From assembly GCA_043228905.1 (NCBI GenBank), contig JBHGNT010000016.1, positions 14,570,001 to 14,634,000 on the forward strand: DNA of 64,000 bases, written 5' to 3'. Below are positions 2,572 to 47,739 of the stretch, one piece after another. Origin of the DNA: Azolla caroliniana. Lineage: Eukaryota; Plantae; Polypodiophyta. Both the position numbers and the translations under genes were made by a program. The notes beneath the pieces were generated by a model. The model did not search any database, was not told the origin of the DNA, and worked only from the letters and a program-made list of their open reading frames with translations. Position 1 is the first letter of the stretch. Each line of letters opens with the position of its first letter.

Positions 2572-2599
2572 TTTAGTATGTGTTGAAGTTGTCGATGCT

Positions 2600-10854: not shown

Positions 10855-12070
10855 GCACGATTTCGACCAGTGGGTTGCATCGGCGAAGACCCACCGGGGC
10901 GCAACGAAGGCATTCCAGGAGTTCAGGCGGCGCTTTACTCGGCTCCCAGAGCGGGAACAAAGACTGGTAGGGGTGGACAAAGTCCTGTTGTTTGTTAGGT
11001 TGATCATCCAAGCGGAATGGGAGGCTGTCGGAATTGAGCTCGAAGACGATGACGGAGCGAATTACCTTACTAAGGACCGGTCGGAAGGCGAAGACGATGA
11101 GGAGCGGTCTGCCAAAGGGCAAGGGAAGATAACGCGTGATGACGCATCATCACAACAAGAAGGACTGGGGAAGCTCGATGTCGAGGCCCTAGTTTGGGAA
11201 GCGTATGAGGCTATGAACACGATGGTCGAAGAGGAGGAGAGATCTGACACGCGGTCGAAGTTCAGAGACTCGAAGCTAGTTGGCCTTCTGGATAAGACGG
11301 ATGTGGCCCATGCAGAGGCCGGAGGACGGTACGACGGGAGAGGGTGTGGAGCAAGAAGCTCTCTCGACTTGTGGAGAAAGACCGGCCGAGGAGGTCAGAT
11401 TCAAACAGATAAGGATCGTAGGTTCGGAACGAGACCAACAATTTTGGGCACGATAGGCCGAAACTCCGGACATTGGAGAAGTAAAGATGGATGCGCGATT
11501 AAAGATGGATGCGGTGAAGAGCCCTCCACACCAATTCTGGAGACTTCAGCAGTCGAGCCCGAGTGCTGTCATGATATGGCAAGACTCGAACCCATGACCT
11601 TATGCTACATGGGTCAAGCGCTTGACCATTAGATTATACGTTGTAATACGTAAAATATTATTTTCATTTATGTTTTATTATTGAAAATTGATGTATATTC
11701 CAGATTTCTCTGGAACATTATAGAAACTTCAGGAGTATTCCTTAGAACACTATAAAAGGAGGCACAAGGCATTATTTCGAACCAAATCGGTTCAACGCTA
11801 GTCTTAAGCCTCCTAGTTACTGTACATTTTCTTCACATAATATATATCTTTTCTTATCATCACTCTCTCTCTCTCTCGATCTCTCTCTCCCTCCCTCTCC
11901 CTCCCTCTTTCCTTCTCTCGAGAGTTCTTCACCTCTCTTAGTACTAATACTTCTTTTAGTACTAAGTCCTTCTCTGTCTTAGTACTGTTCATGACAGTTT
12001 GAACCGATTTGCCCCACCTTCTGTCTCTCTCATTTCCTACTAATCTCTTATTCCTCTTTTCTTTCATCCC

Positions 12071-13222
12071 ATGGCCACTGTTAGCGCTGAAGAATATCAA
12101 TCTGTTTTCTCGGAATTTCAATGCTTGAAAGAGAAGTTCCATGCTTTGGAACAAGAAAACCAACGGTTGCTGGGGGATCTTCAGCGAATCTCCTTAGAAA
12201 AGCAGCAAACGCAACAACAACATGGGGAACTTGCGTTACACGTGCAACAACTCGAAGCAACCATCATAGCGATGCAACAACAAGGGCCCGGAACACAAGG
12301 GATTCATAAAGAACCCAAGATTGGCCTTCCCACGAAGTTCGATGGAACGCGATCGCAGTTTAGAGGGTTCCTTAACCAGGTACGATTAGTTATTCAAATG
12401 CATCCTTCCCGGTATCCCATCGATGCATCACGAGTGGGTTTAGTAGGCACTTTGTTAAGTGGCTCAGCGTTGGCATGGTTCGCTCCACTATTAGAAAAGG
12501 AATCTCCATTACTCAACAATTTTGAAGAGTTTCTAGGTGAGTTTAAAGCATGTTTCGAAGATACTGACAGCATCAGGACCGCAATCAATAAAATTCGGCG
12601 ATTACGCCAAGGTGACCGTCCAGCCTCCGCATACGTTGCAGATTTTCGCCTACTCGCCGTTGATATCCCTTGGGATGATCAAGCGTTGATGGAGCAATTC
12701 CGTTATGGTTTACGCAACGATGTCAAGGATTTACTCTTGACCTTCCCCGAAGAGCCAAAGTCCTTAACAGAAGCAATCAGTCGCGTGGTGAGATGTGACA
12801 ACCGCCTCTTTGAGCGACGTTCGGAACGACAGCTACAGATGCCGAGGGCAAGATCAGAGCCCACCTACGCCTCAGTGGTAACAAGACCTTTTCCGAGGGA
12901 GTCATATAATGTGCCTCCAGCGAATACTCCGACTCCGATGGAGATTGACACTACACGTTGTCGAGGGCCATTATCCGAAGAAGAAAAGCAGTGATGCCGT
13001 ACAAATCGACTATGTCTTTACTGCGGTGGACCAGGACATATTGCAATAAATTGCCCCCATAGGCCAAGAAGACAGGTAAACCAAATAGTCGTTAGTTCTA
13101 ATTGTACTAAACTTGAGCCTATTTCAGTAGGGATATCTGATAGTCCTAATAGTACTAATAGCCCAGATCTAGCGAACAAATTTGATGTCCTTAGTCAGTT
13201 AGAAGAAGAGTTAAACGACTAA
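12071..13222 (+). pseudogene. gag: Chromovirus gag (one in-frame TGA at 12992-12994, then a CCHC knuckle)
   Basis: KFDGTRSQFRGFL, LRQGDRPASAYVADF, TPMEID; CLYCGGPGHIAINC after the stop. Confidence 0.9.
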
Positions 13223-13248
13223 GTCTAGCCAAAATAGGAGCCGTTTGG

Positions 13249-15165
13249 TTGGACAGCCCTAGATCTGTGCAGCCCATTAGTGGTTCCATTCCCTCTAAGC
13301 AAGTTAGTGATGTGTTCGTAGCCCAAGTAATAGTTAGTACTAAAAGTACCCCTCCAATACATGTCCTAGCACTCCTAGATTCTGGAGCTAACTCTTGCTT
13401 TATGGATAAGAAATTTGCTCAAGCTCATAAGATATCCCTAAGAAAACTCCAGTGTCCAGCCTCTGTAGTAGTCATTGATGGATGTCCCATTGCTTCCGAA
13501 AATATCATAGAAGAGTCAGAGCTCATTAATATTGTCCTAGATAACTTAGCATGTGAATTTAATATTATTAGTATCCCAGAACATCCCATAGTTTTAGGAT
13601 TACCGTGGTTCGAGTTACATAACCCAGACATAGATTGGAGAACAAGAGAAATCCGGTGTCGACAAACCCAAGGGTCAACTCAGAAGATGGCAACCATTTC
13701 GCTACGTCAGTTGCGTAAAGAAGGGCACAAGGAGGAAATGTTCCTCTTTGCAATATCAGTAAACCCCTCCAACACCACTAAAGAAGAATGCAACGTTCAA
13801 CTTCCCGAGAAGTATCGTCATTACGCCGATGTGTTTGATAAAATACAAGCCAACACACTTCCTCATCATCGACCGTACGATTGCCCCATCGATTTACAAC
13901 TGGGAAAAGAGCCGCCATGGGGACCGATCTACAATTTGTCACCAACCGAGCTGGAAGTCCTTCGGGCCTATATAGAGGAGAATTTGGAAAATGGTTTCAT
14001 CCGGCATTCGAAATCTCCAGCGGGCGCACCCATTTTCTTCATCAAGAAAAAGGATGGATTGCTTCGTCTCGTTGTAGATTACCGTGGCCTGAATAAGGTT
14101 ACAATTAGGAATAGGTATGCTCTTCCCCTTATCTCACGTCTTTTAGAATGGATCAATGATGCCAGGTTCTTCACGAAGATTGACTTACGGGGAGCATATA
14201 ACCTCGTACGGATCCGACCACGAGACGAATGGAAGACCGCGTTTCGCACCAGATATGGGCACTTCGAGTATACGGTCATGCCGTTCGGCCTCACTAATGC
14301 ACCGGCAGTCTTCCAGCACATGGCTAATGATATATTCCGAGATCTTTTGGATGATTGTTTGATCATCTCTTTGGATGATCTACTGGTTTATTCAAAGACC
14401 CAAGAAGAACATGATTCTCATGTACTATTAGTACTAAAACGACTTCGAGAACATGGTCTGTATGCAAAGCTGGAAAAATGTAGTTTCAGATGCAACCAAG
14501 TGGAATTTCTCGGCTACATCATTTCGTCAGAAGGCATCTCCATGGACCCAGCTAAGGTCAAAACGGTGGTAGAATGGCAGACTCCGTGTTCGGTGCGGGA
14601 TGTGCAATGCTTCCTAGGCTTTGCCAATTTTTACCGGAAGTTCATACAAGATTACTCAAAGATCATTCTACCTCTCACACAACTTACCAGGAAGGGACAA
14701 CCATTCATCTGGTCTGAAGAAACGGATGTGGCTTTCGAGAGTCTTAAAAAGGCATTTACCTCGCCTCCAATTCTAGCTCATGTCGATCCGGAAAAACCAT
14801 TCATTATCGAAGCTGACGCATCGGATTTTGCATTGGGGAACATTCTATCACAACAGGGGAATGATGAGAAGCTACATCCTGTGCCTTTTCACTCACACAA
14901 GTTTGACGCCGCCGAAATCAACTACGAAATTCATGATAAGGAGCTATTGGCAATAGTGGATTCTTTTATGCAATGGAGGCATTTTCTGGAGGGATCCTCT
15001 CATCCGGTCACCGTATTTAGTGACCACAAGAACCTTGCCTACTTTCAGGATGCTCGTGTGTTGAATCGATGTCAAGCTCGGTGGGCCCACTTCCTCATGC
15101 GTTTTGACTTCAAAATTACATATCGTCCGGGGAAGCACCAAGGGAAGGCAGATGCATTATCACGG
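13249..15165 (+). pseudogene. pol: Chromovirus pol, part 1: aspartic protease, RT, RNase H (cut by the B insertion)
   Basis: LLDSGA; LRLVVDYRGLN; MPFGLTNAPAVFQ; catalytic motif reads SLDD (YLDD expected); ADASDFA, KELLAI, DHKNL, KADALSR. Confidence 0.95.
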
Positions 15166-15295
15166 TGTCACGTTGTTACGCGCGTGCGTGGAGAAAGGCG
15201 GGACCACGAGGGTCTTGGAAGAGAGAGTGATGGAGCGTAGGGAGTCGTGCTTCACTGTTTCTGGGGCATCCCAGAAACACACCGGAAGCAACCGA

Positions 15296-15341
<46 letters not shown>

Positions 15342-16167
15342 TTGTCGTGAAGAATTTCGGCCATAGGCGAAAACCGGGAAACATTGTCTACATCGGCGGG
15401 GTGCAGCGTGTGTACGCACCCATGTACATTTGGTGTGAATATCGAGGGCGCCTTTATGGCGCCGAAGAGTAGTCAAGTCGGGACAGATGATCCCATGAAA
15501 GTCGGGATTTGTCCCACATTGTAACGCGTCCCTCCCCTTGTTCTATAAAAGGGAGGGAACGCCCTTTGTAAAAGGGTTGCCCATTTTTGCATTTAGAGGG
15601 TATACCAGTAGGTTTAGGGTTAGGTTTCTTCTACTACTTCTTCTTTCCCTTCGTGTTCGCTTAGGGTTTGCTTCAGCTCATCTCCTGCGCAAGACCCCGC
15701 TCGGCGCGACGAGCCCGTGAGCTCCCCGATGGTGGCTTGGCAGCAGACGACTACTGTAACCTACTTCAGCCTGGCTCGAAGCCGGGAGTGTATTCTCCTT
15801 ATATATATATACATATACGTTTGCGTCTGTCTGCGTATATTGGTGTCTTGTTGGTGTCGGGTAATCCACTCCTTCCCTGCGTTTCCTGTACATAAGGGCG
15901 TGAGTCGGGTCGGGCTGTGTGTGCGTGTGCGTGCGTGGGTGAGCGTGAGTCGGTGTTAAGCATGCTCACTCTCTCTCACTCTCTCTCACTCTCTCTCCCT
16001 TCGGTTGCTTCCGGTGTGTTTCTGAGATGCCCCAGAGGCCGTGAAGCACGACTTCCTACGCTCCGTCGCTCCCTAGTCCAAGACCCCCATGGTCTCGCCT
16101 TTCTCCACGCACGCGCGTAACAACGCGACATATTTGGTGAACCCGACGTGAAAGGCGGCAAGGGAGG

Positions 16168-21200: not shown

Positions 21201-24200
21201 GACTGGACTCCGTTTCTATGCTTGCCGAAACTAGGGTGTCTTTTGTTTGAGTCCCTCCCGGACTCTCCTTGTGTCTTCCGCGTAGCCGGGTCCCGTTTCC
21301 CGCCGCCACCAACCTTCTCTCTCGGTGTCATGTTGCCACATTGGCCGAACTGCCGGAGTTTGGTTAACTGTGGGGATCCCGTAGGACCGGACTTCCTTAC
21401 ACCCATTGTGTTCGTTACCTCGCCGCCACCGTCAGGATCTTGGTCTTACGTCGGCCACGTTGCCGACTGCCGAAGTCTCTAGAACCGGTGTGAAGGATCC
21501 TCCGTAGACCTTCCATCCGTAGCCCTTGCCTTCGTCACCTCGCCGCCACCGTCAGTATCTTGGTCTTACGTCGGCTGCGTTGCCGACCGCCGAAGTCTCT
21601 AGAACCGGTGTGAAGGATCCTCTGCAGGCCGCCTCGCCTTCTTGACCCTGTCTCGGGTCGTCCTTTTTCGCATTGCCGACGTACCGTGTCCTCGGCCTCT
21701 TCGTAGGCCTGCTCTCTTCCTCCCTCCCGGAATGGTCACCCGGGAGTCCGCTCCGCCACCGATCTCTCTTGTAGGACTCACGCCAGCACTCGGGCCTACA
21801 GCCGGATCGGTGTAAGCAATCCCATAGGACCGGCTTTCATTCTCGTTCTTAACCTCGACCTTCGCCCGGTCCGTCTTTCTCCCCATGTAAAAGAGGGCGG
21901 CTCGTCCCGCACCCCCTCCCGTATCGGCACCTTTATGCCGAGTCCGGCCACGATCGAACGGCCCACGACCGGATCACGCTCCACCCGTATCGGAATGCCG
22001 ATCTCCACGTGTCGTGTCCATCCTCAGCCTTCCCGCAGGTCGTCTCCCATCCGTCTTCGCTGGCATTGTGCCAGGACTCCTCGGTACCGCCATCCATCTC
22101 CTCGGTCTTATATGGGCATACGGGCCCGAATGCCGAGTTCTCCGGAATTGGGTCCGTGGGCTTTTGTCCGCTCCTTCCCCGTATCGTCTCGCCGATGATT
22201 CTTGGCCTTTCGCCGCTGCCTTCCTCCGCTTGGGACTCACGTGGGCACTCGGGCCTGACCGCCATCGTCTCGGGAGTAAGTGTGGGAAGACACAAAGAAT
22301 CGCCTGTCCGTTTTACGCCCCTGTCCGTAGCCACTAGCTCTCCGTGGTCGGCGGTCGTCTTCTTACCGACCGCGCAAGCCCCGTCTGGGCTTGTTTCTCC
22401 AATGATCGGGATCTCGGGCTGACACGCCCGAAACCGCTGGTCCCAACGTTCCGGTTCCGCGATCGGTATCTCGGCCTCGTCCTTGGCCATTCTATCTCCA
22501 CAAATCGAGAGGGCGTTTTCTTCCGCACCCTCTCCCGTGGTACCGTGATACCGATCTTCCGCCGTCGCGTGGGGCAAGTCCGTCTCCTTGGTCTCGGCTT
22601 CCGGCCTTGATCTTCCCTCTTCCTCGAGCATCGCTTTGAGAGCTGCGTACGCCTCCGCAATCCTGGCCCCAACGCCGATCCTTGCCAACTCCCTTTTCCG
22701 TTCGGCCTCTTCCTGCTATTATGGCACGCCATCGCGTACCTTCCTCTTAGCCTTCTCGGCTCGCTCGTTGTCTAGCCGTTGGCACACCCTTCCGACCTTC
22801 GCCCAGTCCTCCGTAAGCCTTCAAGAGCGCCTCTTCGAAGGCCTCCCACGAACTATGAGCCTCACGGAGCTCCTTCACTTCCGCATGCTTCCGGACAGCT
22901 ACGACCCGACGGAAGAACTCTAGCCTCAACGCCTCGTCTATGCCACGATCCTCCATTTCCGCGTTGTAGGCTTCTAGGTAAGATGGGACTTTGTTCCGCT
23001 GAAACGGCCGACTCTTTCGACCACTCGCTCAACCGCTTGTTGCGCTGCTTCTCGCCTCATCACCACTCGTGCCGACTCCAACACCACTTCGGCCACCATC
23101 TCCGCAAGGTCGTCGTCTTCCGACTCCATCCTCCCTTGCCGCGTTTCACGTCGGGTTCACCAAATATGTTGCGTTGTTATGCGCGTGCGTGGAGAAAGGC
23201 GGGACCACGCGGGTCTTGGACAAGAGAGTGATGGAGCGTAGGGAGTCGTGCTTCACTGTTTCTGGGGCATCCCAGAAACACACCGGAAGCAACCGAAGGG
23301 GGAGAGAGAGAGAGAGAGAGAGAGCGTGCTTAACACCGACTCACGCACACACACACACACGCACGCACATGCAGCTCAACCCGACTCACGCCTTATGTAC
23401 AGAAAACGCAGGAGAGGGTAAGCACTCGACGCCAACAACGACGCGAATATATACAGACAAACATAAACGTATATGTATGTATATATATGAAGAATACATT
23501 CCCGGCTTCGAGCCGGACTGAGGTAGGTTACAGTAGTCGTCTGCTGCCAAGCCGCCGTTGGGGAGCTCACGGGCTCGTCGAGCCGAGCGGGGTCTTGCGC
23601 AGGAGATGAGCTGCAGCAAACCCTAAACGAATACGAAGGAGAAGAAGCTAACCCTAAACCTAACGGTATACCCTCTAATGCAAAATGGGCAACCCTTCCA
23701 CAAAGGGCGATCCCTTCCTTTTATAGAACAAGGAGAGGGATGCGTTACAATGTGGGACAAATTGTTACCCGGACCCGGACAGTCAGTTTTACCGAACAAG
23801 TGGGAAAGCGTCGAAAACGGAGTCGGTTCAGATCGACTGTTCGGATCAATGACTCAGCAGTGAACAAAGAGAACTAAGTTAGTTAGATAATTTTGTAATT
23901 CTTGATAGTAAGTAGGAATAGTTCTTGATGAGAAAAGACCTTCGGTATACCTATAAAAGGGAACCGAAGGCATTGTAAGAAAGGTCGTTTTATTTAGTAA
24001 TATAAGTTTAAGTTAGGAATATCCTGTACGGATTCTGTGTTCTTTCTATTGTCTATGTTGTTAAGTGCAAGCTTCCTAATTTATAACTAAGTAACGATCA
24101 CGGTAATTACCGATTAATATAGTATAATTCCGTTCGTAAAACACAATTCCTTGTTAGAACGTTGAGTAGCAACGTTCACTCTTCTGTATCGGTAGTAGTT

Positions 24201-24230
24201 AGTAATTAGCCGATTAACACAAAAGAATTT

Positions 24231-24243
24231 TGGCACGCCCGGT
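24231..24243 (+). promoter_or_regulatory. PBS complementary to tRNA-Arg (probably the TCT isoacceptor), element C
   Basis: TGGCACGCCCGGT matches the recalled tRNA-Arg 3' end (...CCCACCGGGCGTG-CCA); lies 11 nt after the LTR. Confidence 0.7.
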
Positions 24244-24278
24244 TACATCTGCAATTAAGCAGAGAACAAATCGAATGG

Positions 24279-25967
24279 ATGTCGTATGAAGAGAAGACAC
24301 CGGTCAGTTGTAAGCGCCCTCGTACAAGGTCAGTTACGAAGGCAGTGCAGCAAGCGTTCATTGCGGAAGAACAGCCGGAATCAAGCACAAAGTGGTCGAA
24401 ACTTCCTGACTTATCCGATCAATTACCTTCAGACGAAAAACAGACGGAAGAGGTATCGTTTTACGACATTTGGGACGATATGCCTTATACTTATTCTAAG
24501 TTCCAGGAAGGATCAGATGCGGAAGCACATGTTAGGGATTTCTTAACGACATGGGAGATTAACCATAGAGCTCAGCGATTGTCGGCAGATGCCGAAGATA
24601 AGTCAAAAATCGCTGAGTTCGTCTTATCATTAGACGGATATTCTGCCAATTGGTTTGCGCAGAACGGTCTTCAAGGATTTCCATCCTTTGAAGTGTTAAC
24701 TAGTAAATTTTTACAATTATTTCATCAACAAATTCCGCAGAAGGATTTGATTGCGCAATTTTATGCGTTATATCAAGAAAAAAATGAAATAGTATCTCAG
24801 TTTGTGATACGATTTCAGAACTTACAGCTTCAGATTTCAAGGCCGATTCCGGATAATGAATTAAAAGAAGTCTTTCTGGAAGCTGTAAAAGAACCATTAA
24901 GGACGACATTGAAAGTGTTCGATTTTCGAAATCAGACTATCGAACAAGTAATTGATAAAGCAATAGAAATGGGTCGACCACCGGTCAATGTTCAGAGTAT
25001 GGACATGTCGGCATTACACCGTACATTACCGACAATAGAGGAGTTACAATTTCGACAAGCAGTTCAATGCACCACTTGTTTAAATACGGGGCATTCGGCA
25101 ATTGAATGTACGTTAAGAACACATTGTACAATATGTCATTCAAAATTACATTCAGTAGAACAATGTGAATATAATTTGCTTAATAAGACTACGGCGTCAG
25201 TACGACAAATTTTTACTGACAATGGTTACCAAAATAACACTAATCTGTTCAATGGTTATCAAAATAATAATTTTTCACAAAATCAGCAAAATGTACAACA
25301 AAATCCGGTTCTACAGCCAAATCAGATCTTTTCACAACAAAATATGCAACCCACTCAAGTGACTCAAGCATTTCAACCAGGTTTTGCTCAATCCAACCCA
25401 CCATTCGTACAGAATCCGAATCAATATTTTCAACAAAATAATCAAAGTTTCCAACAAGGTAACCCACCATTTCAAGGGTTTCAACAGAACTGTCCGAATG
25501 TGCAACCGAATTCTACATTTCAACCAAATCCGGCATTTCAACCGGGTAATATGACCTTTCAACATAATACTCAAACCGTTCCACAAAATAATCAAATGTT
25601 TCAACAGAATAATTTTCCGCCAAATCAGGAGTTCGGGATAACACAAAATGTAGCACAACCAAATGATAATACTGAACAATTTAGGCAGAATCGGTATAAA
25701 AACAAGAGATTTTACAAACCAAAAGCTACACGTCAATACCAACAAAACCCGAGTGGTAATGAAGAGCAGCAATTTAATAACGGCCAATTTGCACATGGAG
25801 AGACCAGTGCAACATTTGTACCCACTTGTTATATTTGTCGACAACTAGGCCATTATGCTAATCAATGTCTGGTTAAAGGAAAGGGTCCAGCAGTTAATAT
25901 GGTAATACCGGAAGTTCAGCAAGTAACGACACGCAGCAAAAGCAAACAATCAGAGTGGGAAATTTAG
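24279..25967 (+). CDS. gag: Gag of C: capsid-like region, three CCHC knuckles, Q/N-rich tract
   Basis: LYQEKNEIVSQFVIRF (major-homology-region-like); CTTCLNTGHSAIEC, CTICHSKLHSVEQC, CYICRQLGHYANQC. Confidence 0.85.
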   Translation: MSYEEKTPVSCKRPRTRSVTKAVQQAFIAEEQPESSTKWSKLPDLSDQLPSDEKQTEEVSFYDIWDDMPYTYSKFQEGSDAEAHVRDFLTTWEINHRAQRLSADAEDKSKIAEFVLSLDGYSANWFAQNGLQGFPSFEVLTSKFLQLFHQQIPQKDLIAQFYALYQEKNEIVSQFVIRFQNLQLQISRPIPDNELKEVFLEAVKEPLRTTLKVFDFRNQTIEQVIDKAIEMGRPPVNVQSMDMSALHRTLPTIEELQFRQAVQCTTCLNTGHSAIECTLRTHCTICHSKLHSVEQCEYNLLNKTTASVRQIFTDNGYQNNTNLFNGYQNNNFSQNQQNVQQNPVLQPNQIFSQQNMQPTQVTQAFQPGFAQSNPPFVQNPNQYFQQNNQSFQQGNPPFQGFQQNCPNVQPNSTFQPNPAFQPGNMTFQHNTQTVPQNNQMFQQNNFPPNQEFGITQNVAQPNDNTEQFRQNRYKNKRFYKPKATRQYQQNPSGNEEQQFNNGQFAHGETSATFVPTCYICRQLGHYANQCLVKGKGPAVNMVIPEVQQVTTRSKSKQSEWEI

Positions 25968-27014
25968 GAAGAAGTTCGGAAGGCGGCAAAAGAATGGGTT
26001 GACGAAGCAAATCAAAGTAATGTGAATCGAATGTTACAAGACAATAACATTGACCAGAACATCGCTGTACAACAGTCATTGGGGAATAAGGAACAGGAAG
26101 AAACTTGGAAACTGTTGGCTGATTGCCAAGTGTCATTGCCACTTACGGGCTTACTTAAGTTAGTACCAAGGTTTACAGAAAAAGTGGCAGCATTAATTGC
26201 ATATAAAGGTTCCGAACAAATAGCAGTACACTACAATCAGCCAAGTAATAACCCTTCGATCATGGATGAACAGAATCCGTCGATCAAGGTAATACTTTAC
26301 GGGCAAGAAATCGGAAATGTGATTATAGATGGAGGCTCGGGAGTTAATGTAATTAACAAAGCTACATGTGAAAAACTGGGAATCACGGAATGGGAAGCAT
26401 GTCCGTTTTGGTTACGAATGGCAGAATCGACAAATAAAACAATTCAAACAATTTTAAAGAAGATAGTGAATGAAAATCGTACTGATTGGGATCAAAAGTT
26501 AAATAGTGCATTATGGGCATATCGTACTTCGTACAAAACATCCATTAAATCAACACCTTTCCGAATGGCATTCGGACTTGAAGCCGTTATGCCGATCGAA
26601 TTTCAAATTCCGACACTTCGTATCCAAGCGACGAATAAGTTAAATGAAATAGAATCGGAGCAGATACGCAAAGAGGCTTTATTAGTATTAGAAGAAGAAC
26701 GGATTCAATCAATGTCAGCACTAGAACACAAGCAGAGACAAATCAAGGCATTCGTAAATCGACATCGAAGGAAATCAGAAGAGCAATTCGAAATTGGGAA
26801 ACCGGTATTGGTATTCCAGACGAGAATGGGACTTATGCCTGGGAAACTCCGGTATAGATGGACAGGTCCAGTATGGATAATTAATAGTAAAAATGGTACG
26901 TATCAGCTGGGATCATTAACCGGAGAGGTTTTACCGAAATGGGTAAATGGATTCCGGCTTAAACCGTATTTGGGAGATATGCCGGTAAATCCGTTTATCC
27001 AAACGGAAGAGTAA
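25968..27014 (+). pseudogene. In-frame protease/integrase C-terminal fusion (RT, RNase H and IN N-terminus deleted)
   Basis: IIDGGSGVNVI protease motif joined at LRMA|ESTNK to DWDQKLNSALWAYRT..TPFRMAFG..RWTGPV..NGFRLKPY; same frame as gag. Confidence 0.9.
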
Positions 27015-27442
27015 AAAAAAGAAAAAAAAAAAGAAAAAAAGAAAAAAAAAGAAGCTAACTAACTAACTCACTCAATAGTTCTTGTCAAATGCAGAAATAC
27101 AATCTTGCCATAACAGTCTAAATCGACTATAAATAGAAAGAGGAATTGCATGATTATTAGTAAGTAGTACAACCACTACACGTAGAGTTAATACTAATTA
27201 ATTCCTACATTAATAGCAATTACTATTCTTTAGTCATAATGCATAAGTTAATATCTTTAAAGCATATTTCTGTATCTTCTGTGTCGCCAAAACAACAGAA
27301 ACGAGTGCAGATATCGAAACAGTCTGAGCCTTCGTGCCCTAGTTCGCCCAAACTCTGTTTTTCTGATTTTCATCGCTACAGAAGCTGTGCAGATCTCCAA
27401 CCGTCATCGACAAGTGATTCAGAACAAGCAAACACAGAAGTC

Positions 27443-29911
27443 ATGCCGATTCCTGTGTCTGAAGAACTGCGATTGTGGCTTCATGAGAGAAACTTACAAG
27501 GTTTCATCAAAGTAGCAGAAGCGGAACCTCATCCGCAGGCGGAAGAATTGGTACAACAAATAGACATCACCAAGGTCACCACAAAGAAAATACGAAATGC
27601 ATTACAGATGCCAAGAGGAGGCTTTGAGGCAGTTAAAAAACCTTCATCAGAAGCACTCCAATCGTATTTCGGGGAATACTCACCCTCGGCAAAAGCATAT
27701 CAGACTTATGGAGGTCGGGATGAGTTTTTCCATGAAGTGGCTAGATTTTTATTAGAGGTGGGATTTGTCAGTCCTCGTTTTTATTGTATGCCGAAAAAAA
27801 GGGCTGGGTTTATCATAGCCGCATACGAAAAAGAGGATTTCAACTGGCCACTATTGTCGGGGGAAGCTCTGAGAGAGCAGCTACAAGGGGTAAAAACAGG
27901 AAAACCAATGAAGCAAATTTTTGGTCGTTGGCTATCGGTATTGTTTCCGATTCAAGAATCAGAAACTCCTGTTCAGTCAAGAAGACCACCGATAGTACAA
28001 GCACCGCGAAGACACCGACATGTAGTACATGAAGAATGGATAGAGGAAGAATCGGCACATGCCGATAATATACAATCGAATATGCCTCAGTCGGAACCAC
28101 CAAGACCAGAGAATTCCGAAAACAGGCAACCAGCAGCCGAACAAGAAACAGTTGACAATTTGATAAACAAGCAACAGCCGACAGAAAATCGACAACAAGC
28201 AGAGAAGATGCGACAAAGGACAAGGATTAAACAAAAGGCTAATCGGCAATTCCAACCAGAAAACAGTGAGGGGTTAGCACCGAAAAGGCAACGCACAAAG
28301 GAAAATTCGAATACGCCTGTAGTAGCAGAAGTAATAAAACCAGGGAATGAGAGCGTTTCGACACAACCTCAACAAGGACAATCTTCAAAAGTAGCAATTC
28401 GGGAAGCACATGGGTACTTGGATATTCCACCAGCAGCACATGAATTAGCTGCCATTTTACAGTTCGGAACTTCATACGAACTGATTGAATGGTTGGCTAA
28501 AAGACTGACAGAAGTATCAGAACGGCTGGCTCAAGAACATAATGACCGAATAATGATACAGAAAGCCTTACGAGGAGTGTTGGAACCTCAAGAAAAAGGA
28601 GAGATAGAGAAAATCGGCCGGAAAAGAAATGCACAGAATAGAGGAGAGGCTATTGAAATGCCACCATTACATGAAGCACTGGTCGAAATTCATAAAGAAT
28701 ATGAAACGGCACGCAAAGCAGCCAGTGATATGGCTGAAAGATACAAAAGTGTATCAGCATCGGCGGAGGTGCTGAAACATCAGTTTTGTAACATACAGGC
28801 AGAAAATAAAGAACTAAAAGAAAGTCTAAACAAATGGGAAACGCAGGCACGACCTATGGCGTCGGAGTCAGAATGGCAGCAGAAATTGGAGGACGCTGAA
28901 AAAGCACGTCAAGCAGAAACAACAAGGGCCAACAATGCTGTATTTCGAACTACAGAATTAGAAAAACAAATAGAAACCATTCAGAATGGTCAATACAAAG
29001 TTCTCGAAGAAAAAAATCAATTAATAAACGAATTACAGAAAAATCTAGAAGAAGCTAAGACGGCCAATCATACATATACCGAACAAATTGAAGAATTCGA
29101 AAGGTATATAGTGTCACAGGAAAGTCAATTGACAGAAAAAGAGCGGAGTCTTGAAGAAGTCAACAGAAGAATTACGGAACAGCAGGAGGAATGGAGCAAA
29201 GAGAAATCGGCATTTGAACAACAACTGGACGAAATTCGGAAGATATCGGAACAAAGACGGCTGGACATATATGTAGTCGAATCCAAACTAATGCGAGCTG
29301 AAAGTGAAAACTGAGCCACTATTACGGATTTACGGAAAGAGTTGCAAACCGCCCAATACGTCGCAAGCATCACTAGGGACAAAGTGCAGCACATCATAGG
29401 GAAACATCGAAACCTAGCAAAGAAAATGATCGATGAATCCCTTGCGCAAGGATGGAAGTTATGGACGGCACAAGCGGCGGAATTACAGTTATTGCGTGCC
29501 GACAAAAATAACCGTCAGGTCCAAGGTGCAGGTTTTTTTAAAATGGCACAAAAGGATATTGACAATATCCAAGAGGATATCATGAAAGATATGGACGAAA
29601 TTGCGGCATTTTACAGAGAAGAAATTCAACGGATTATGCAAGAATTCGACAAAAATGATATAGGCACTTCCGTCCAGTTGGATAAAATCGAAGCCGAAAG
29701 AACCAGCAAGACTCCTGGTCTTCAAGCTCCCGGAAGAAGTGAACCAGAGCAGCCAACCGAATCACAACATTCAAAACCTGCTCCGAATGACGACTGTGAC
29801 ACAGATGAAGATGAAGATGAAGAGAAAGGTATAGATGGAATACATCCAAGGCTAGAAGAGCCTTCGATTTTTGATATTCTGAACGATTCGGATGAAGAGC
29901 TACAGGAATAG
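27443..29911 (+). CDS. Extra 3' ORF of C (env-position ORF, ~822 codons with one in-frame TGA at 29312-29314), long coiled coil
   Basis: The 691-aa and 189-aa ORFs are in the same frame; probable start MPIPVSEE inferred from the homologue at 52179; E/K/Q-rich heptad-like C-half; acidic tail. Confidence 0.75.
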
Positions 29912-30595
29912 GCGTGGGTTCGCTGGACAAGGTCCTGGCCCACGGACGTGCCAAGTGTTACCCGGACCCGGACAGTCAGTTTTACCGAACAAGTGGGAAA
30001 GCGTCGAAAACGGAGTCGGTTCGGATCGACTGTTCGGATCAATGACTCAGCAGTGAACAAAGAGAACTAAGTTAGTTAGATAATTTTGTAATTCTTGATA
30101 GTAAGTAGGAATAGTTCTTGATGAGAAAAGACCTTCGGTATACCTATAAAAGGGAACCGAAGGCATTGTAAGAAAGGTCGTTTTATTTAGTAATATAAGT
30201 TTAAGTTAGGAATATCCTGTACGGATTCTGTGTTCTTTCTATTGTCTATGTTGTTAAGTGCAAGCTTCCTAATTTATAACTAAGTAACGATCACGGTAAT
30301 TACCGATTAATATAGTATAATTCCGTTCGTAAAACACAATTCCTTGTTAGAACGTTGAGTAGCAACGTTCACTCTTCTGTATCGGTAGTAGTTAGTAATT
30401 AGCCGATTAACACAAATCCCGACTTTCATGGGATCGTCTGTCCCGACTTGACTACTCTTCGGCGCCATAAAGGCGCCCTCGATATTCACACTAAATGTAC
30501 ATGGGTGCGTACACACGCTGCACCCCGCCAATGTAGCTAATGTTTTCTGGTTTTCGCCTCTGGCCGAAATTCTTCACGATTCTTCACGACAACGG

Positions 30596-32222
30596 CGTTC
30601 GTATCTAGCACCCCGTCCCGGCGAGCCAGCTTTTGATAACCAAAAACAAGTCATTTTGGGACCGGCACGACTACAAGCAACACAGATCTTTGACATACCC
30701 ATGGATTCCCGCGTTATCGATACCATACGCGAAGACTTGAAGACAGATGCGTTCGCCCAAGCTATACTAGCACAAATTGATCCCTCTTGAGTGTCAGGTT
30801 CACAGTCGCAACCACCAGGTATGGACTATCGGCAATTCAAATACCATGATGGATTACTCTTCTTTAAAGAACTTTTGTATGTTCCTAATGGTTCTTGCCG
30901 CCTTCAAGTAGTACAAAACTATCATGACACATATACAGCTGGGCATTTTGGTAGTACTAAAACACTACATTTAGTACAACGATCATTCTGGTGGCCCTAT
31001 ATGCGACAATTTGTCGAGGATTTTGTTCGGACTTGTGATACATGCTGCAGAGCGAAAATGCCAAGGCATCATCCATATGGTTTATTAGAACCATTACCAA
31101 TTCCAAGCAAGCTGTGGCAGTCCATTGCTCTAGTCTTCATCACAGATCTTCCAGTCTCTAAGGGGTTCAATGCGATTCTAACGGTGGTCGATCGATATAC
31201 GAAGATGACTCATTTCTTGCCATGTACTAAGGAGATCTCTAGTGAAGACACTGCCGAAATTGTCATGCGTGAAGTATGTCGGCATCATGGACTTCCCGAT
31301 AGTATCATCAGCGACTGTGGACCCCAGTTCGTGTCAAAATTCTGGAAGCACCTTTTTAACATGCTCAAGGTTAGTTGTAACCTCTCCTCCGGCTACCACC
31401 CACAAACCGATGGCCAAGCCAAACGAACCAATCAAACGCTGGTGCAGTATCTGCGGTGCTTTCTCAGCTATCATCAGGATGACTGGGCAGATATTCTCCA
31501 CTTCGCCGAATTTGCCTATAATAACTCTATCCACGCATCCACGAAAGTTACGCCATTTTATGCTTATATGGGATGTCACCCCCGGTGGTGTGTACTTGAA
31601 ACCCCAGAGGTGACCACAAATCCTTGCGTAGAGGATTGTTTGGAGAGGTTACTCAAGATACAAGCGGATTTGTCTACTCATCTCCAACAAGCTCAACAAA
31701 CACACAAGGTTTATGCGGATCGTCATCGACTCCCATCTAGTTTTAACATTGGAGATTGGGTATGGCTACTCCGACGACACATCAAGACTACTCGCCCATG
31801 CGAGAAGTTGGATTATCGGTGATTAGGTCCTTTCCGTATTATAGGAAAGATTAATGATGTCGCTTTTCATCTTGATCTACCTCCACAACTTCGGATACAT
31901 CCGGTGTTTCATAGTTCTCTCCTCGAACCCTATCAAGAGAGCACCATCCCAGGCCGTATTACACAGCCTCCACCCCCGATCGAGCTTGAAGATGGACCTG
32001 AGTACGAGGTTGCCGCCATCCTTGATTCCAAGTTTGTTCGCAACAAGCTCTACTATCTAGTCGATTGGCTAGGATATAGTCCCAACAAGCGTACTTGGGA
32101 ACCGATAGAGAATGTCACCAATACTCGTGCTCTTCTTGAAGACTTCCATCGTCAATATCCAGACAAACCGGGTCCTCAATCCAAAACGACTCGTTACACT
32201 CATCGTTTTAAAGGGGGGATAG
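30596..32222 (+). pseudogene. pol: Chromovirus pol, part 2: integrase, GPF motif, chromodomain
   Basis: H..GHFG..CDTC zinc finger; FITDLP, IISDCGPQF, HPQTDGQ; LGPFRI; EYEVAAILDSK..YYLVDWLGY..TWEP; stops present. Confidence 0.95.
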
Positions 32223-38252: not shown

Positions 38253-41200
38253 TGTTGAGAAGCAAGCTCAACAAAGGTATGTGATGCTTATTGAGAAATA
38301 AGTTATAGTAGCTATTAGCTAATTAGCTACTAGTGGACATAAAGGTGAAACAACTATTTAGCTATGCACAACTATTTAACTACTAACAACTATTTAGCTA
38401 CAGACAGCTAATTAGCTGCATATATAAGTCACTTATATACTTAGGTAAAAAGTAAATGTAGTAAGTAGAAGAGAGTAGTAGTGAGAGTAGTGTAGAGAGT
38501 TGTAAGAATAGAAAGAACAAAAAACAAACGAGAGCAAGTTGAGCTCTGCGTGTAATGAAGTAGAAGCTTTTGGATTGTGCAAAGGTAAGTCTCCTTCCCC
38601 TTCCCTTTTCTGTCTTGAGCACTAAACGATCCAACACATCACGATCCGTTGTGCCCACAAAAGAGCCGTAGCACCTTCGTAACATGGTATCAGAGCTGAG
38701 TTGCTCATAAAGAATATTAGAACAATACAGATCTGAGAAAGGTTGTTTCTTTGTTTGCTGATCTGAATCAGAGAGTTGTTTGTTGAAGTAATTGTAGCAA
38801 AAGACCTAATTTGAAAGAGAAAATGGCTACAGAAAATGGAAGCCAAATAGTCACAAAAAAATAAGATAAAAACAATTTCTCAGCATGGAAATTCAGAATG
38901 ACAAATTTCCTAATGGGAAAAGGATATTAGGATTACATTGAAGGATACCTAGAAGAGGCTCCAAAGATCCTTGAAGAAAATGCAACTGCTGCATAGATTA
39001 TAACATTTAAAGAATGGAATCAAGGGGAAAGAAAGGTATTGCATTGACTCTCACTTAGCATCTCAAATTGGATGCTTGGACACATACAAGATGTTATGCT
39101 TCCAAAAGAAGCTTGGGACAGTTTAGTAAAACTGTTTGTAGTGAACACAAAAGGCTAGAAAGCTTTAGTTGAAGACTGAGCTAAATACCTTGGAAAAAGG
39201 TAAAATGTCAGTGAATGAGTATGCTCTGAAAATAAAGAGCGTATGTGAATCACTTGTTTCTATCGATGTGAAGGAAGAGAATGATGATAAGGTGGAAATA
39301 TGCTTAAGAGGTTTAGGATCTCAATATAAAAGCTTCAAAACATCTATTCTCACAAGGGATAGCATCCCAAGTTTTCCAAATGTGATTTCAATGCTTGTAG
39401 TGGAAGAAAGAAATCATATGGATGATGTAAACAAAGGAAACTCTAAGACTGAGGAGCAAGCCCTCTACAATAGTGTTGGAAGAGGCCGAGGAAGAGGCCA
39501 TGGAAGATTTGGTTCAACTAGAAGCAACAATAGTTATCAAGGAAGAGGACAATAGGTTACAAGTGGAAGAAACAACATCAGAGGTAGGGGGAGCAATCGA
39601 GGAAGAGGTAAGCAAACTTATTTGAATGATGATGGTTTTTGGTATTGTGGAAAACCAAGCCATACACAGGTTGAATGCTATAAAAAGCAAAATGATGAAA
39701 AAAGAGGGAAGAGACAGCAAAATAATTATGCCTCAACTAGTGAAGACTGTGATAAAGACGATGCATTTGTGGTGCAACATGAAACAGCAGCAATGGCTGA
39801 ATGTTCACAGAGATGTAATGAAGAGTTTATGTGGTATGTAGATTCTGGGGCATCTAATCATATGACAGGACATGCAAACTGGTTTGAAAGTCTAAGAGAA
39901 CTAGAGATTCCTAATTATGTATAGACAGGTGATAATACCACTCACCAAATAGAGCATGTTGGAGATATCCCATTGTGGGAAGAAAAAGGGAAAACAAAAT
40001 ATATGCTGAATGTTATGCATGTGCGAAACCTTGCAAAAAATTTGATTTCTATTGGACAAATAGTGGAGCAAGGAATGCAAGTTAAGTTTAAGCAAAGTGG
40101 ATGCTTTATAGAGAAACGGGGAAAGCTTATTGCAAAAGGAAAACATCAAGGAAGAATGTTTGTGTTAGATGTGGATATGCCTAAAAAGATTACAGTCATA
40201 TTTGCAGAAGGAATGAGTGTAATCTCAGATGTGGAAATGTGGCATAAAAGAATTGGTCACATAAGTATGCAAACCTTGAAAAATATGTTGAGGAAAAATG
40301 CAGTGGCTGGACTGCCTAAGTTGAAAGACTGTAAGATAAGCAAAATATGTGAAGCGAAACAGGTTGCCTTTCCCTCATGAAAGACATGTGAGCAAAAATT
40401 TGTTGGATTTTCTACATACAGATATATGGGGACCAACAAAAAATGCATCAATTAGTGGATGTAAGTTTTATGTAACATTCATTGATGATTGCTCAAGGAA
40501 AACATGGGTTTACTTCATGAAAGAAAAAAATGAAGTTTAAATGCATGGTAGAAAAGCAGGTTGGAACTAGAATAAAATGCCTAAGATCTGATGGAGGAGG
40601 AGAATACTTCTCAAATGAGTTTTCTGATTTTCTATGTAATCAAGGAATAAGGAGACAGTTTACATGTAGATATACTCCACAGCAAAATGGAGTTGCTGAG
40701 AGAAAAAACAAAACTCTGGTGAACATAGCAAGAGCCATGATGACAAAAATATATATGCCATTGTATTACTGGGAAGAAGCTGTAAACACAGCAAATTATA
40801 TTCTAAATAGATGTATAACATCTGGAATGCATGAAGTAACTCCTGAAGAATGTTTCTATGGCAGGAAGCCTAGTTTAGAACACTTAAAAGTGTTTGGATG
40901 CCTTGCCTATGTTCATGTACCTACTGAAGTAAGAAGTAAGCTTGATCCAAAAGCTGAAAAATGTGTTTTTGTTGGATATTCAGAGGAACAAAAAGGGTAT
41001 AGATGCTATAACCCTTTCACAAAAAAGATTGTGGTAAGCCGTGATTTAATATTTTATGAGTTGGGCAGCTGGTACAGCCAAAAACAAAATGTAGAAACTG
41101 ATGAAGACTGTAAAAATGAAGACAGAGAAAAATTTGAAAATGGAAGAGATTGCCATGGAGATGGAAACAATGTTGGACAACAAAGTTCCACATCAATGGA

Positions 41201-43577
41201 ATGTATTGGACCATCTAGAAGCTCAGGTAGTAAATTTGAATCTAATGCATGGAGTGGAAAAAATGCAAGACACAAAAAATATGATGATAGAAAGGGGAAA
41301 CAGAATATGCAAGAATATGAAATGCTTGATGATGGGTCTAGAAACATGGAAGATGTAGATTCCAATACATCATTGGATGATGAGCTTGGTATAGGAGCCT
41401 TGAAAATCCCTAGTATGGAAAAAGCAATGAAAGATGCACATCAGAAACTCAGAAGATTAGATAGAGAGAAAAATATTGTTGAAAGATTTGGTTATGACAC
41501 ATGGCTATGCATTATGCATACATGTCTAAAGTGGTACACATCCCTAATCCAAATAGTTTTGATGAAGCAAAATCTAATAAGAAATGGGTGAATGCAATGC
41601 AAGAAGAAATAGATGCATTGGCTGAAAACAGAACATGGGATTTGGTGAAGTTACAGAAAGGAAAAAATGTTGTAGGTTGCAAATGGGTCTACAAAACAAA
41701 GCATGATTCCAATGGAAATGTTAGTAGACATCAAGCAAGACTTGTGGCAAAGGGATATGCCCAGATGCATGGAAATGATTATGATGAAACATTTGCACTG
41801 GTGGCAAAAATGGCAACCTTGAGAACACTACTTGTTGTGAGTGCAACCAAAAGATGGTTTCTGCACCATATGGATGTAAAAAATGTCATTTTACATGGTA
41901 ACTTGGAAGAGGAAGTATACATGTGTCAACCACTAGGTTTTGAAGATAAGAAGCATCCAAAATATGTATGTAGGCTGAAAAAGGCTCTCTATGGACTGAA
42001 ATAGGCACCGAGAGCATGGCATAAAGAACTTTCAGAATCTCTGAAAAAAATTTCCTTCAAAATGTCAAAAGCTGATCCATCATTATATGTAAAGAAGATA
42101 AATGATTGCATTGTTGTGATTTTGATTTATGTAGATGATTTAATCATTGGAGGTAATTCCATGGATGAAATAAGCAAGCTGAAAAAAAATCTTGAAATGC
42201 AATTTCATATGAAGGATTTGGGAGAGCTGAGATACTTTCTTGGCATTGAGATGATCAGATCTGAAAGTGGTATATATATGTTGCAAAAACAATATGCGAC
42301 AACTATGTTGAAGAAGTATGGTATGCTTGGATGCAAACCTATTGGTGTACCACTAGATAAGAACTACAAATTGAGGGTTGATTTGGGAGCCAAAATAGAA
42401 GATGTAAACATGTACAGGTCTATGGTGGGTACCCTCATATCTTTGACCATAACAAGACCTAATTGGAGTTATGATGTGGATTAGTTAGCCAGTTTATGCA
42501 ACAACCAACAAAGCCACATTTGGACTGCATTAGAAGAATCTTGAGGTATGTAAAAGCTACTCAGAACTATGGATTGTTTTACAGGGCTGATTTGGACATA
42601 AAGCTGGAAGGATATACAGATGTTGATTGGGCTGGAAGCCAAACTGACAGAAGATCCACAAGTCGATATATTTTTACATTGGGAAGTGCAACTATTTCAT
42701 GGGGTAGCAAGAAACAAGCTACTGTTGCATTATCAAGTACTGAAGTTGAATATAAAGGAGCTGCAATAGCCACCTGTGAAGAGGTATGGATCAGAAGATT
42801 GCTTTCTGATTTGGGAGAGTATATAGATGGTGTAGTCACAATTTGGTGTGACAATATGAGCAGCATTCAAGTGGCAAAAAACCCAGTGTTCCATGCAAGA
42901 ACAAAGCACATTGAATTGCATTATCACTTTGTTAGAGAAAAAGTGATTGATAAAGAAGCGGATTTGTTGTATATAAGTATAAACCAGCAAGTTCCTGATA
43001 TTCTTACGAAGGGATTGAGCATGGAAAAACATACACAGTTTATAGACATGATGGGAGTTATAACCATCGGCATGGTAGTTGAAAAGCATGAAGAAAAGAA
43101 GATTGAAGATGATCCCAAGAAAGGATAAGTTGAGCTTGAGGGGGAGTGTTGAGAAGCAAGCTCAACAAAGGTATGTGATGCTTATTGAGAAATAAGCTAT
43201 AGTAGCTATTAGCTAATTAGCTACTATTGGACATAAAGGTGAAATAGCTTTTAGCTATGCACAACTATTTAGCTACTGAAAGCTAATTAGCTAATGGCAG
43301 CTAATTAGCTGCATATATAAGTCACTTATATACTTAGGTAAAAAGTAAGTGTAGTAAGTAGAAGAGAGTAATAGTGAGAGTAGTGTAGAGAGTTGTAAGA
43401 ACAGAAAGAACAAAAAACAAACGAGAGCGAGTTGAGCTCTGCATGTAATGAAGTAGAAGCTTTTGGATTGTGCAAAGGTAAGTCTCCTTCCCCTTCCCTT
43501 TTCTGTCTTGAGCACTAAACGATCCAGCACATCACGATCCGTTGTGCACACTGAAGAGCCGTAGTGCCTTCGTAACA
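38253..43577 (+). mobile_element. Full-length but degenerate Ty1/Copia; LTRs 38253-38684 and 43147-43577
   Basis: TSD ACTTG; PBS TGGTATCAGAGC 38685-38696; PPT TTGAGGGGGAG; LTRs clearly diverged (about 20 differences by eye). Confidence 0.97.
38823..43128 (+). pseudogene. Copia gag-PR-IN-RT-RH with multiple stops and frameshifts
   Basis: VDSGASNHM, HTDIWGP, RSDGGGEY, QNGVAERKN, ARLVAKGY, YVDDL, YTDVDWAG, RTKHIELHYHFVRE. Confidence 0.97.
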
Positions 43578-43949
43578 ACTTGGTCGACAGGAAGGTCTTC
43601 TGGAGTAGAGACATAGTCTTCATGGAAGACAAGACCATAGCCGACTAGGAATCAGAGAATAGAATAGTATCCTCTAGATCGATTAACAGAGAACGATTGC
43701 AAGAGGCAAGGACCCATCCGGTCAGAAGCCGGATGTTAGCTGAAAACCACAGAGAATTGTCTAGATCCAAACAAAGAACCGAAACGACCGAAGAAGAACT
43801 GGACACCAGAACCAGAGAAGACCCTGAATTGAATTCAGATGAAGAATAGACGGAGGAACCAATTGTCGGAACTCAAGGATGGAGATATCCTCTCAGAGAG
43901 AGAAGAGCCCCTGGAGATTTCTGGATACAGAGCATATATTGCTGACCGA

Positions 43950-46054: not shown

Positions 46055-47739
46055 TGTCGTGAAAATCCGTCACTATGTGCGGATCGTGAGGCGGAATCGC
46101 CGGGGTTATGGACGGGAAGGAAATAGGGCTCACACACACAACACAAGGAAGGCTTACACAAACAAGGCACGAGTATTCGAACGTGTTTGTGAAAAGGACA
46201 AGTGCATGGGCAAGCCCGAATCAACCCCTAGTCACAAGGCGAACAAATGCACATGAGGAAGGCTTACACACGGACACACAAGGAAAAGGCTTACTTACAC
46301 ACACGAGAGATAGAGTTTCGAATGCCTTTGTGAAAAGAGAGGTGCATGGGCAAGCACGAACGCTCCCTTGTTACAAGACACGCAAACACACAAGCAAGGT
46401 TTACACACGGGAGACACAATTTCGAACGCCTTTGTGAAAGGAGAGGTGCATGGGCAAGCCCGAACGCTCCCTTGCCATAAGTCGCACGAACACACAAGAA
46501 AGGTTTACACACGAGAGACACAATTTCGAACGCCTTTGTGAAAGGAGAGGTGCATGGGCAAGCCCGAACGCTCCCTTGCCATAAGTCGCACGAACACACA
46601 AGCAAGGTTTACACACGAGAGACACAATTTCGAACGCCTTTGTGAAAGGAGAGGTGCATGGGCAAGCCCGAACGCTCCCTTGCCACAAGTCGCACGAACA
46701 CACAAGAAAGATTTACACTAACACGCAAGACACAATTTTGAACACCTTTGTGAAAGGAGAGGTGCATGGGCAAGCCCGAACGCTCCCTTGCCACAAGTCG
46801 CACGAACACACAAGCAAGATTTACACTAACATGCAAGACACGTAAGTTTGAATGCCTTTGTGAAAGGAGAGGTGCATGGGCAAGCTTGAAACGCTCCCTT
46901 GTCACAAGACACACAAACAAATAAGCACAAACGACGATAACATATAAGACACATAGGTTTGAATGCCTTTGTGAAAGGAGAAGTGCATGGGCAAGCTCGA
47001 AACGCTCCCTTGTCACAAGACACACAAACAAATAAGCACAAATGACGATAACAAATCAGCACAATCAAGATTTACACATAAGACAAGTAGATGAAAGAAA
47101 ACATTAGTTTATATCAATATAATAGATTCTTTTATAATATAAGAATCATGTTACAATGGGTTGGATGCGAATATGAAGGATTGTTTATAAAGGAATGGGG
47201 GAAGAGAGGTGGAGGAAAGAAGAGAGTGGAGTATAGAAGGAGTTTCTTTGTTGATGATGCCTCTCGATGTTGTTGATCCTTCTTCTTCCACTTTCCAATT
47301 GAGTAGATCTTCCGCGTTCCTTCTCCCTCCCCCCCCCCTTTCTACACTAGAATAGGCTCTTATTTATAGGTTTAGGATTGCTTGCCTTTTCCCCCTAAAA
47401 AAAAGCTTGTCTATATGAGTCAACTTTTCTTTTCCTCACTATTTCTGTTTTCTAGCATCAAATTTCACATGCAAGATATTCTTCGAAAGCTCTTTAGGTT
47501 AGCTTTGTTATGCATCTTTTCTTTTCTAATTTGGACATTTGACGAGGAAATTATGAGCCTTTTACTCGACCTTGCTCCTCATATCCACGACTAGCTTTTC
47601 TTTTCCCACCTTTTTCTCTAATTTTGTCTACTTTCGAAAACCTCTTCTAACTTTTTATCCTTTCATTTATTACTATAGTTGACTTAAGAAAATTAGTTTA
47701 TTTAGACCACAATTTTATTCTCTCATAAACATCACGACA
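46055..47739 (-). mobile_element. Solo LTR H (TGTCGTGA..TCACGACA), 1.7 kb
   Basis: 8-bp terminal inverted repeat; flanks CCGG/CCAG; the host LTR resumes after it; minus-strand TATAAATA near 47368. Confidence 0.8.
46135..47070. repeat. ~104-bp tandem array, about 8-9 units, inside H
   Basis: CGAACGCCTTTGTGAAAGGAGAGGTGCATGGGCAAGCCCGAACGCTCCCTTG recurs with a 104-bp period in the core; outer units are longer and more diverged. Confidence 0.95.

Follow-up and report, generated by a model that had tools for sequence, protein, structure and literature searches.

A tRNA-Arg-derived site stands in place of the polypurine tract in a plant Ty3/gypsy retrotransposon lineage

Structure of element C and its surroundings

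In the window analysed here, a stretch of 64,000 nucleotides (64 kb) of Azolla caroliniana DNA, we have identified a defective Ty3/gypsy copy, element C (23763–30412, plus strand), that has no polypurine tract (PPT) at its 3′ LTR. The element is flanked by a perfect target-site duplication (TSD), CAAAT, at 23758–23762 and 30413–30417, the junction agreeing with contigs of the empty site, and is bounded by LTRs of 457 bp that begin with TG and end with CA (23763–24219 and 29956–30412) and differ by one mismatch (456/457 identity). The preliminary description had recognized these near-identical ends and had taken them as a sign of recent transposition, which stands for the insertion itself but does not extend to the timing of the internal deletion. 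The insertion can also be read with a shorter TSD and a longer LTR; this reading was rejected because a survey of plant LTR retrotransposons reports TSDs of 4–6 bp only (PMC6317226), and the LTR of the relative L151 ends at the same ACA.

The 5′ LTR is followed by a spacer of 11 nt (24220–24230) and by a primer-binding site (PBS) of 13 nt (24231–24243) complementary to residues 64–76 of tRNA-Arg(UCU). The PBS thus begins 11 nt after the LTR and not 1–3 nt after it, which had been overlooked, as had the premature stop of gag, the deletion in pol and the internal stop of the extra ORF. Among relatives the spacer measures 2, 5, 9 or 11 nt and always begins with CA, and such variable spacers imply that integrase would trim long overhangs of variable length.

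The gag gene (24279–25967; Retrotrans_gag and zf-CCHC domains) carries its premature stop at the end and is 97% identical to the corresponding part of P0014, the protein of an autonomous relative. It is followed by a protease fused in frame to the integrase C-terminus (25968–27014); the RT, RNase H and most of the integrase are absent, amounting to about 920 codons by comparison with P0014. An A-rich tract (27013–27054) lies 3′ of pol and is found in the same place in three of the five relatives examined, all three belonging to family C, to which it is confined. It is a possible internal priming site, yet at 2.9 kb from the LTR it is too distant to set the LTR end. An extra ORF in the sense orientation (27239–29911) has an internal stop at 29312–29314 and its stop codon at 29909–29911; in relatives it encodes about 890 aa, the N-terminal domain being conserved and the C-terminus long and coiled-coil-like. 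It matches no Pfam family, and in the ESM Atlas it gave only leads below 0.9, to DUF1985 and the plant mobile domain.

The DNA to the right of element C matches 15345–15512 in inverted orientation, so that the element is nested among further repeats. Another Ty3/gypsy element is represented by its gag, protease, RT and RNase H at 12044–15240; the window also contains a separate integrase fragment at 30791–31822, a tandem repeat with units of 104–111 bp at 46193–47028, and a broken Ty1/copia element at 38254–43584. The latter has an ordinary PPT at about 43139–43147 and a PBS that we take, from its motif, to be of the common tRNA-Met type.

A copy of the tRNA-Arg 3′ end beside the 3′ LTR

The 44 nt between the extra ORF and the 3′ LTR (29912–29955) are not purine-rich, with 24 purines in all and 11 in the last 20 nt. 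As had been described, they consist of a T-stem, TTCG, an inserted hairpin and a strand ending in CCA-AG. Their interval 29914–29953 is a copy of residues 49–76 of tRNA-Arg(UCU) with one C missing and a hairpin of 16 nt inserted in the T-loop. Residues 49–57, the 5′ strand of the T-stem with the T-loop TTCG, are reproduced identically (9/9) at 29914–29922; the hairpin at 29923–29938, composed of 2 bp, a bulged T on the 3′ side, 4 bp and an AAN loop, replaces residues 58–60; residues 61–76 follow at 29939–29953, lacking one C of 65/66, with A for G68 and with the CCA end. Two bases (29954–29955), which we predict to be an overhang trimmed by integrase, separate the CCA from the LTR starting at 29956. 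The earlier finding that 29943–29954 is the reverse complement of 24230–24241 at 11 of 12 positions was borne out.

A tRNA matching the site, tRNA-Arg(UCU) with the same 3′ end, was looked for and found in element-borne copies and other records; the reference used here was read from L151, an element-borne copy in the same assembly series as the family, and L153, another record, both of them ARAGORN calls rather than a proven host gene. When 45-mers of the window were sampled on both strands at a step of 15, none of 8528 bound residues 49–76 as well as the minus copy of the site did (−43.0 kcal/mol, against a mean of −16.0 with sd 5.2), and only 0.06 occurrences of the 15-nt 3′ motif with up to two mismatches are expected from shuffles. 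Moreover, on minus DNA the site qualifies by its sequence as a second PBS, if a PBS is taken as at least 10 nt complementary to a tRNA 3′ end and 0–5 nt from an LTR end: its predicted pairing with the tRNA comprises 15 bp, includes a single bulge and a single wobble, and lies 2 nt away from the LTR. Pairing of the tRNA with the minus copy gains 17–25 kcal/mol versus 3–9 for the tRNA with the sense RNA, as calculated with RNA–RNA parameters and an unmodified tRNA. The G68 change of family C leaves a G-T wobble in the duplex with the tRNA, but in the duplex with the PBS it creates an A-C mismatch; it is a single event of a kind that cytosine decay also produces.

The site is not itself a tRNA gene. 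ARAGORN called no tRNA gene in the 64-kb window, the 3′ site included, and Rfam returned no tRNA there, only weak unrelated matches; just residues 49–76 are present, outside the LTR, with no cloverleaf or A and B boxes within the LTR. Nor is it a PPT, a usual feature beside the 3′ LTR of Ty3/gypsy elements rather than a phylogenetic criterion: the last 15 nt before the LTR hold at most 60% purines in 69 of 69 matches, and the copia element of the same window, serving as an internal control, has its ordinary PPT touching its 3′ LTR.

Conservation among loci and families

Metagenome contigs were scanned with a pattern that held the tRNA-like letters exact, such that their invariance among the main-scan matches is built in, and that allowed a loop of 3–30 bases and 0–1 extra base. 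The scan returned 90 matches at 88 loci and, with L178 dropped from the counts as lying on the same contig as L177, 21 tRNA-type and 67 hairpin-type matches (66 loci) were separated without intermediates. The extra C is present in all 21 true-tRNA matches and missing in all 67 hairpin-type sites. In the latter, the insert is 16 nt long in 62 and 17 nt in 5, and CCA, 2 nt and TG follow one another in 64 (two sites have a 5-nt spacer and one an altered LTR start); neither these traits nor the missing C had been imposed by the pattern. The sites are distributed over 9 LTR clusters among 52 matches with enough downstream DNA, and over 6 upstream clusters among 68 matches with enough upstream DNA, L178 being included in both. 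The 66 loci represent a diversity of families and not a breadth of hosts, since all come from one assembly series.

Sibling and autonomous copies were also inspected for a PPT, and both siblings and integrase-bearing relatives carry the same 3′ segment without one; the integrase end, the extra ORF and the site follow in this order at L154, L163, L210, L221 and L229. In addition, a non-coding family without any frame above 133 codons in its 2523-nt unit has kept LTR, PBS and site. This tandem LTR family (L177, which provides the unit, L164, L167, L207 and L211) has a 10-nt tRNA-Arg PBS, and most of its copies have a purine run of 9–14 nt about 80 nt before the LTR. L174 has a gag-like stretch (2500–3400, counted in the orientation of the motif) that precedes the 3′ site by less than 1 kb, which suggests a gag-only deletion derivative.

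In public sequencing runs, contigs from four coded organisms cover the site and the summed depth rises over it. In three runs, 29–48 contigs per run (48 in run X9) join the site at 29913 from unrelated upstream DNA. The single contig of run X8 that crosses the ORF end proceeds through the hairpin without difference; it is the sole conservation test in these runs that the motif did not filter, and a limited one, and the run difference table omits known differences, so that absent rows were not counted as conservation. Four copies found without the motif filter differ at 7 of 96 tRNA-like positions, and a TTTG variant of the T-loop part is seen in 9 and 13 contigs in the loose-end consensus lines. 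In viral contigs, the exact 20-nt motif had no match, a loose pattern had 30, one of them inside an ARAGORN-called tRNA-Arg, and a search with P0014 found no relatives. A loose pattern of 18–19 bases gave at least 120 matches in prokaryote genomes (about 230 estimated), which were set aside, being judged by their titles as chance or unrelated tRNA.

Hairpin fold and covariation

The fold derived from 20 distinct copies consists of the 5-bp tRNA T-stem, a TTCG bulge, 2 bp, a bulged T, 4 bp and the AAN loop. Changes on both sides were observed at four of the six pairs of the upper hairpin, and 97.3% of the pairing cells are filled by pairs versus 83.4% in shuffles (0/500) and 31–48% in slid controls, a covariation that stems from about three family types and therefore from few independent events. 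Among the filtered matches the lower stem could not covary, its sequence having been set by the search pattern; in four unfiltered copies no covariation of this stem was found. The fold of the segment is no more stable than that of shuffles (z −0.42 as RNA, −0.86 as DNA), and the minus DNA of the site folds on itself.

A58, which we take to be the methylated, non-pairing tRNA base at which RT normally stops, is kept in 55 of the 67 sites and replaced in 12, and this replacement weakens the reading of the site as a three-dimensional mimic of the T-loop. Families of the ACG type keep A58, G59 and U60, and their additional 13 nt fall precisely between A58 and G59.

Autonomous relative and classification

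P0014 (1830 aa) has all the expected Pfam domains except the protease, whose motif was read directly, and at its C-terminus it agrees with the integrase end found in the window, so that integrase comes last. Inspection by eye shows that it keeps the FLDD motif of RT and the four acidic residues of RNase H. TG...CA LTRs, a TSD and a PBS in element C, together with the order gag-protease-RT-RNase H-integrase in P0014, place the lineage in Ty3/gypsy. The nearest named matches of P0014 are fern (Adiantum) and angiosperm proteins. In a quick tree calculated from 48 rows of RT-RNase H sequence, without curated Athila, Phygy and Selgy references, the lineage forms a clade of its own outside a 35-row clade of mostly named angiosperm matches (support 100), and apart from one row with an additional RNase H. 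The 35-row clade is presumably Athila-like, going by its protease motif. The PBS of our lineage matches tRNA-Arg(UCU) and not the tRNA-Asp of Athila; the additional RNase H domain that marks Tat is lacking, with neither PF13456 nor PF00075 among the precomputed domains of P0014–P0019, and no chromodomain was detected on P0014 or in the window at 25968–27011. Judged from these features, the lineage is a non-chromovirus one with an Athila-like layout, not a proven Athila.

Read-through copies and the origin of the site

At L151, L169, L183 and L189 the PBS is lengthened by a part of the tRNA or by the whole of it, with the CCA, an indication that RT copied on into its primer. L151, L169 and L189 are short non-autonomous elements, the first two also having variant 3′ sites. 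At L183 (1–2055, minus strand), LTR-like units stand in tandem with nothing between them but a spacer of 5 nt and a complete tRNA-Arg(UCU), CCA included, in antisense, and ARAGORN calls three tRNA genes in this array, whose units are probably read-through products. Copies of this type would inflate counts of tRNA-Arg genes and might be transcribed.

Read on the minus strand, the 3′ site resembles an LTR-end/PBS junction lengthened by tRNA read-through, and the two loci with a 5-nt 3′ spacer resemble in it the PBS spacer of L169 and L183. Probably, the 3′ site arose from such a junction, lengthened by read-through copying and then inverted; an inversion by way of the terminal inverted repeat of the LTR is a plausible origin.

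Priming of the plus strand

Its position, its conservation, its covariation and the absence of a PPT show that a conserved tRNA-Arg-derived site has replaced the PPT in this lineage. Since the plus-strand primer sets the left end of the LTR, the primer probably ends at the CCA. The preliminary description had proposed that host tRNA-Arg anneals to minus-strand DNA at this site and primes the plus strand; we infer the same, as the best reading among those weighed, and regard it as having about an even chance of being correct. The broader proposition, that a whole plant Ty3/gypsy lineage dispenses with the PPT and has both strands primed by host tRNA-Arg, the second time at an inverted PBS that loops out the methylated A58, seems to us equally balanced between true and false.

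According to the host-tRNA reading, tRNA-Arg would prime the minus strand at the ordinary PBS; after strand transfer, RT would copy the 3′ segment and RNase H would clear the RNA, leaving minus DNA that presents a PBS two bases from the LTR end. Residues 61–76 of a tRNA would then pair with this DNA with one bulged C, residues 49–57 would pair beyond the extruded hairpin, and residues 58–60 would loop out at a three-way junction. Extension of the tRNA CCA end by RT would yield plus DNA beginning with the 2 nt before TG; RNase H would remove the tRNA and integrase would trim the 2 nt. We counted in favour of this reading the conserved traits of the 67 sites, the covariation of the hairpin, the contigs of runs X8 and X9, the difference of 17–25 versus 3–9 kcal/mol, the insert between A58 and G59, the non-coding family, the read-through copies, the RT and RNase H motifs kept by P0014 and the ordinary PPT of the copia element. 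Counted against it were the element's own RNA, which is a perfect partner for the 40-nt site and must be removed first, and also the self-folding of the minus DNA, the TTTG variant, the differences in the four unfiltered copies, the pattern-selected letters, the simplified energy parameters, the few covariation events, the single G68 event and the origin of all 66 loci in one assembly series.

Alternatively, the element's own RNA, folded like a tRNA, would resist RNase H, be cut after the CCA and prime in cis as a structured, non-purine equivalent of the PPT. This is possible, if on the whole unlikely. It requires no second tRNA and follows the usual logic of a surviving fragment of genomic RNA, as described for Ty3 (PMC5371799). 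The position of the site fits it equally well, and the compensatory changes keep the hairpin even at the cost of tRNA identity at 58–60. However, such a fragment always pairs with its own DNA copy regardless of sequence, so that nothing would hold the letters left unpaired in the hairpin, TTCG and GCCA, to their tRNA-like state, and that they do stay tRNA-like counts for a host tRNA over a cis fragment. Furthermore, compared with shuffles the fold gains no stability (z −0.42, +0.58, −1.91), and the lower stem shows no covariation in the four unfiltered copies, the filtered ones being unable to show any.

Another reading, which we consider improbable, gives the site the main task of joining the two ends of the genomic RNA, through pairing either with the PBS or with the 5′ strand that the primer tRNA has freed; this would aid packaging or minus-strand transfer, and plus-strand priming there would be a by-product. 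There is an 11-bp match to the PBS, the missing C creates a 10-bp match to tRNA residues 1–10 (−21.7 kcal/mol, two families), and the PBS of Ty3 is split between both RNA ends (PMC5371799). Yet family C has a central mismatch in both duplexes, the TTCG part pairs with neither PBS nor tRNA in the sense orientation, and the CCA placed 2 nt before the LTR in 64 of the 67 sites is left unexplained, a primer being still required there. Pairing between site and PBS had been suggested before; the 11/12 complementarity supports it, but it is the weaker alternative and contains the A-C mismatch in family C. This change, a wobble in the host-tRNA reading and a mismatch in the PBS-pairing model, speaks for the former.

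Priming could also start at an ordinary purine tract upstream, with integrase trimming an overhang of 40–110 nt that includes the tRNA-like segment, which we judge very unlikely. In most loci the 120 nt preceding the LTR contain a purine run, which reaches 14 nt in the non-coding family; several subfamilies have G-rich DNA just before the site in the loose-end consensus lines, and trimming of as many as 11 nt is already implied at the right end. Nonetheless, the longest run varies between loci, being 3–14 nt long and 37–112 nt away, the tRNA identity is left unexplained, and we know of no case in which an overhang of 40–110 nt is trimmed. Finally, a functionless relic of an old inversion is scarcely credible. 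The lineage does produce tRNA copies by read-through at its LTR ends, but conservation of the site among LTR clusters that fail to align with one another, its covariation and its retention by a non-coding family largely refute the idea.

Comparison with known systems

Element C belongs to a known kind of element; its way of priming would be new whichever of the two leading readings applies. To our knowledge, LTR retrotransposons and retroviruses are generally regarded as priming their plus strand from a PPT, the known exceptions concerning the minus strand. A successful lineage of multiple families without a PPT at the LTR shows that this rule can be broken, and whether the primer is a host tRNA or a tRNA-like fragment of the genome, it would be a primer of a new type. 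The system offers a direct way of testing which features RT and RNase H require when a plus-strand primer is selected. Annotation tools that reward a PPT are suggested to undercount such elements, and the ends of this lineage may be read in the wrong orientation. A literature search that included ferns found, in the text accessible to it, no description of tRNA-primed or PPT-less plus strands, most subscription papers, Repbase and supplements lying outside its scope.

With the Athila/OTA non-chromoviruses (PMC6317226) and FIDEL (PMC2844528), the lineage shares the order Gag-pro-RT-RH-IN without chromodomain or additional RNase H, a long region between pol and the 3′ LTR, a 5-bp TSD and a long gap between LTR and PBS. 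It differs from them in its tRNA-Arg rather than tRNA-Asp PBS, its 457-bp LTRs, its own RT clade and the lack of the Athila ORF-1 domain. In FIDEL the Asp PBS lies 9 nt after the LTR and a PPT is present (PMC2844528), where our lineage has the tRNA-derived site. Helenus TRIMs are likewise LTR elements with tRNA-derived sequence, but theirs is located within the LTR, where it probably serves as a promoter; they have a PPT, and the author of the study found no part for the sequence in priming (PMC10886601).

Non-standard primers are also known from the self-priming Tf1/sushi, Tcn1 and TAR elements and from half-tRNA-primed copia elements, yet all of these concern the minus-strand primer (PMC6317226, 10.1101/2022.12.06.519325). 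Similarly, the three primer types of the plant LTR survey are all minus-strand ones, with the PPT given as a usual feature (PMC6317226), and the fission-yeast elements keep their PPTs (10.1101/2022.12.06.519325). Ty3, too, has a tRNA-primed minus strand, extended contacts with the tRNA T-arm and sequence related to a tRNA close to its genomic 3′ end, but it begins plus-strand synthesis at a PPT of 12 nt (PMC5371799). The 3′ half of the Ty3 PBS is, in the RNA, complementary to the tRNA and lies in U3 (PMC5371799), whereas the copy in the RNA of element C is identical to the tRNA and occupies the place of the PPT.
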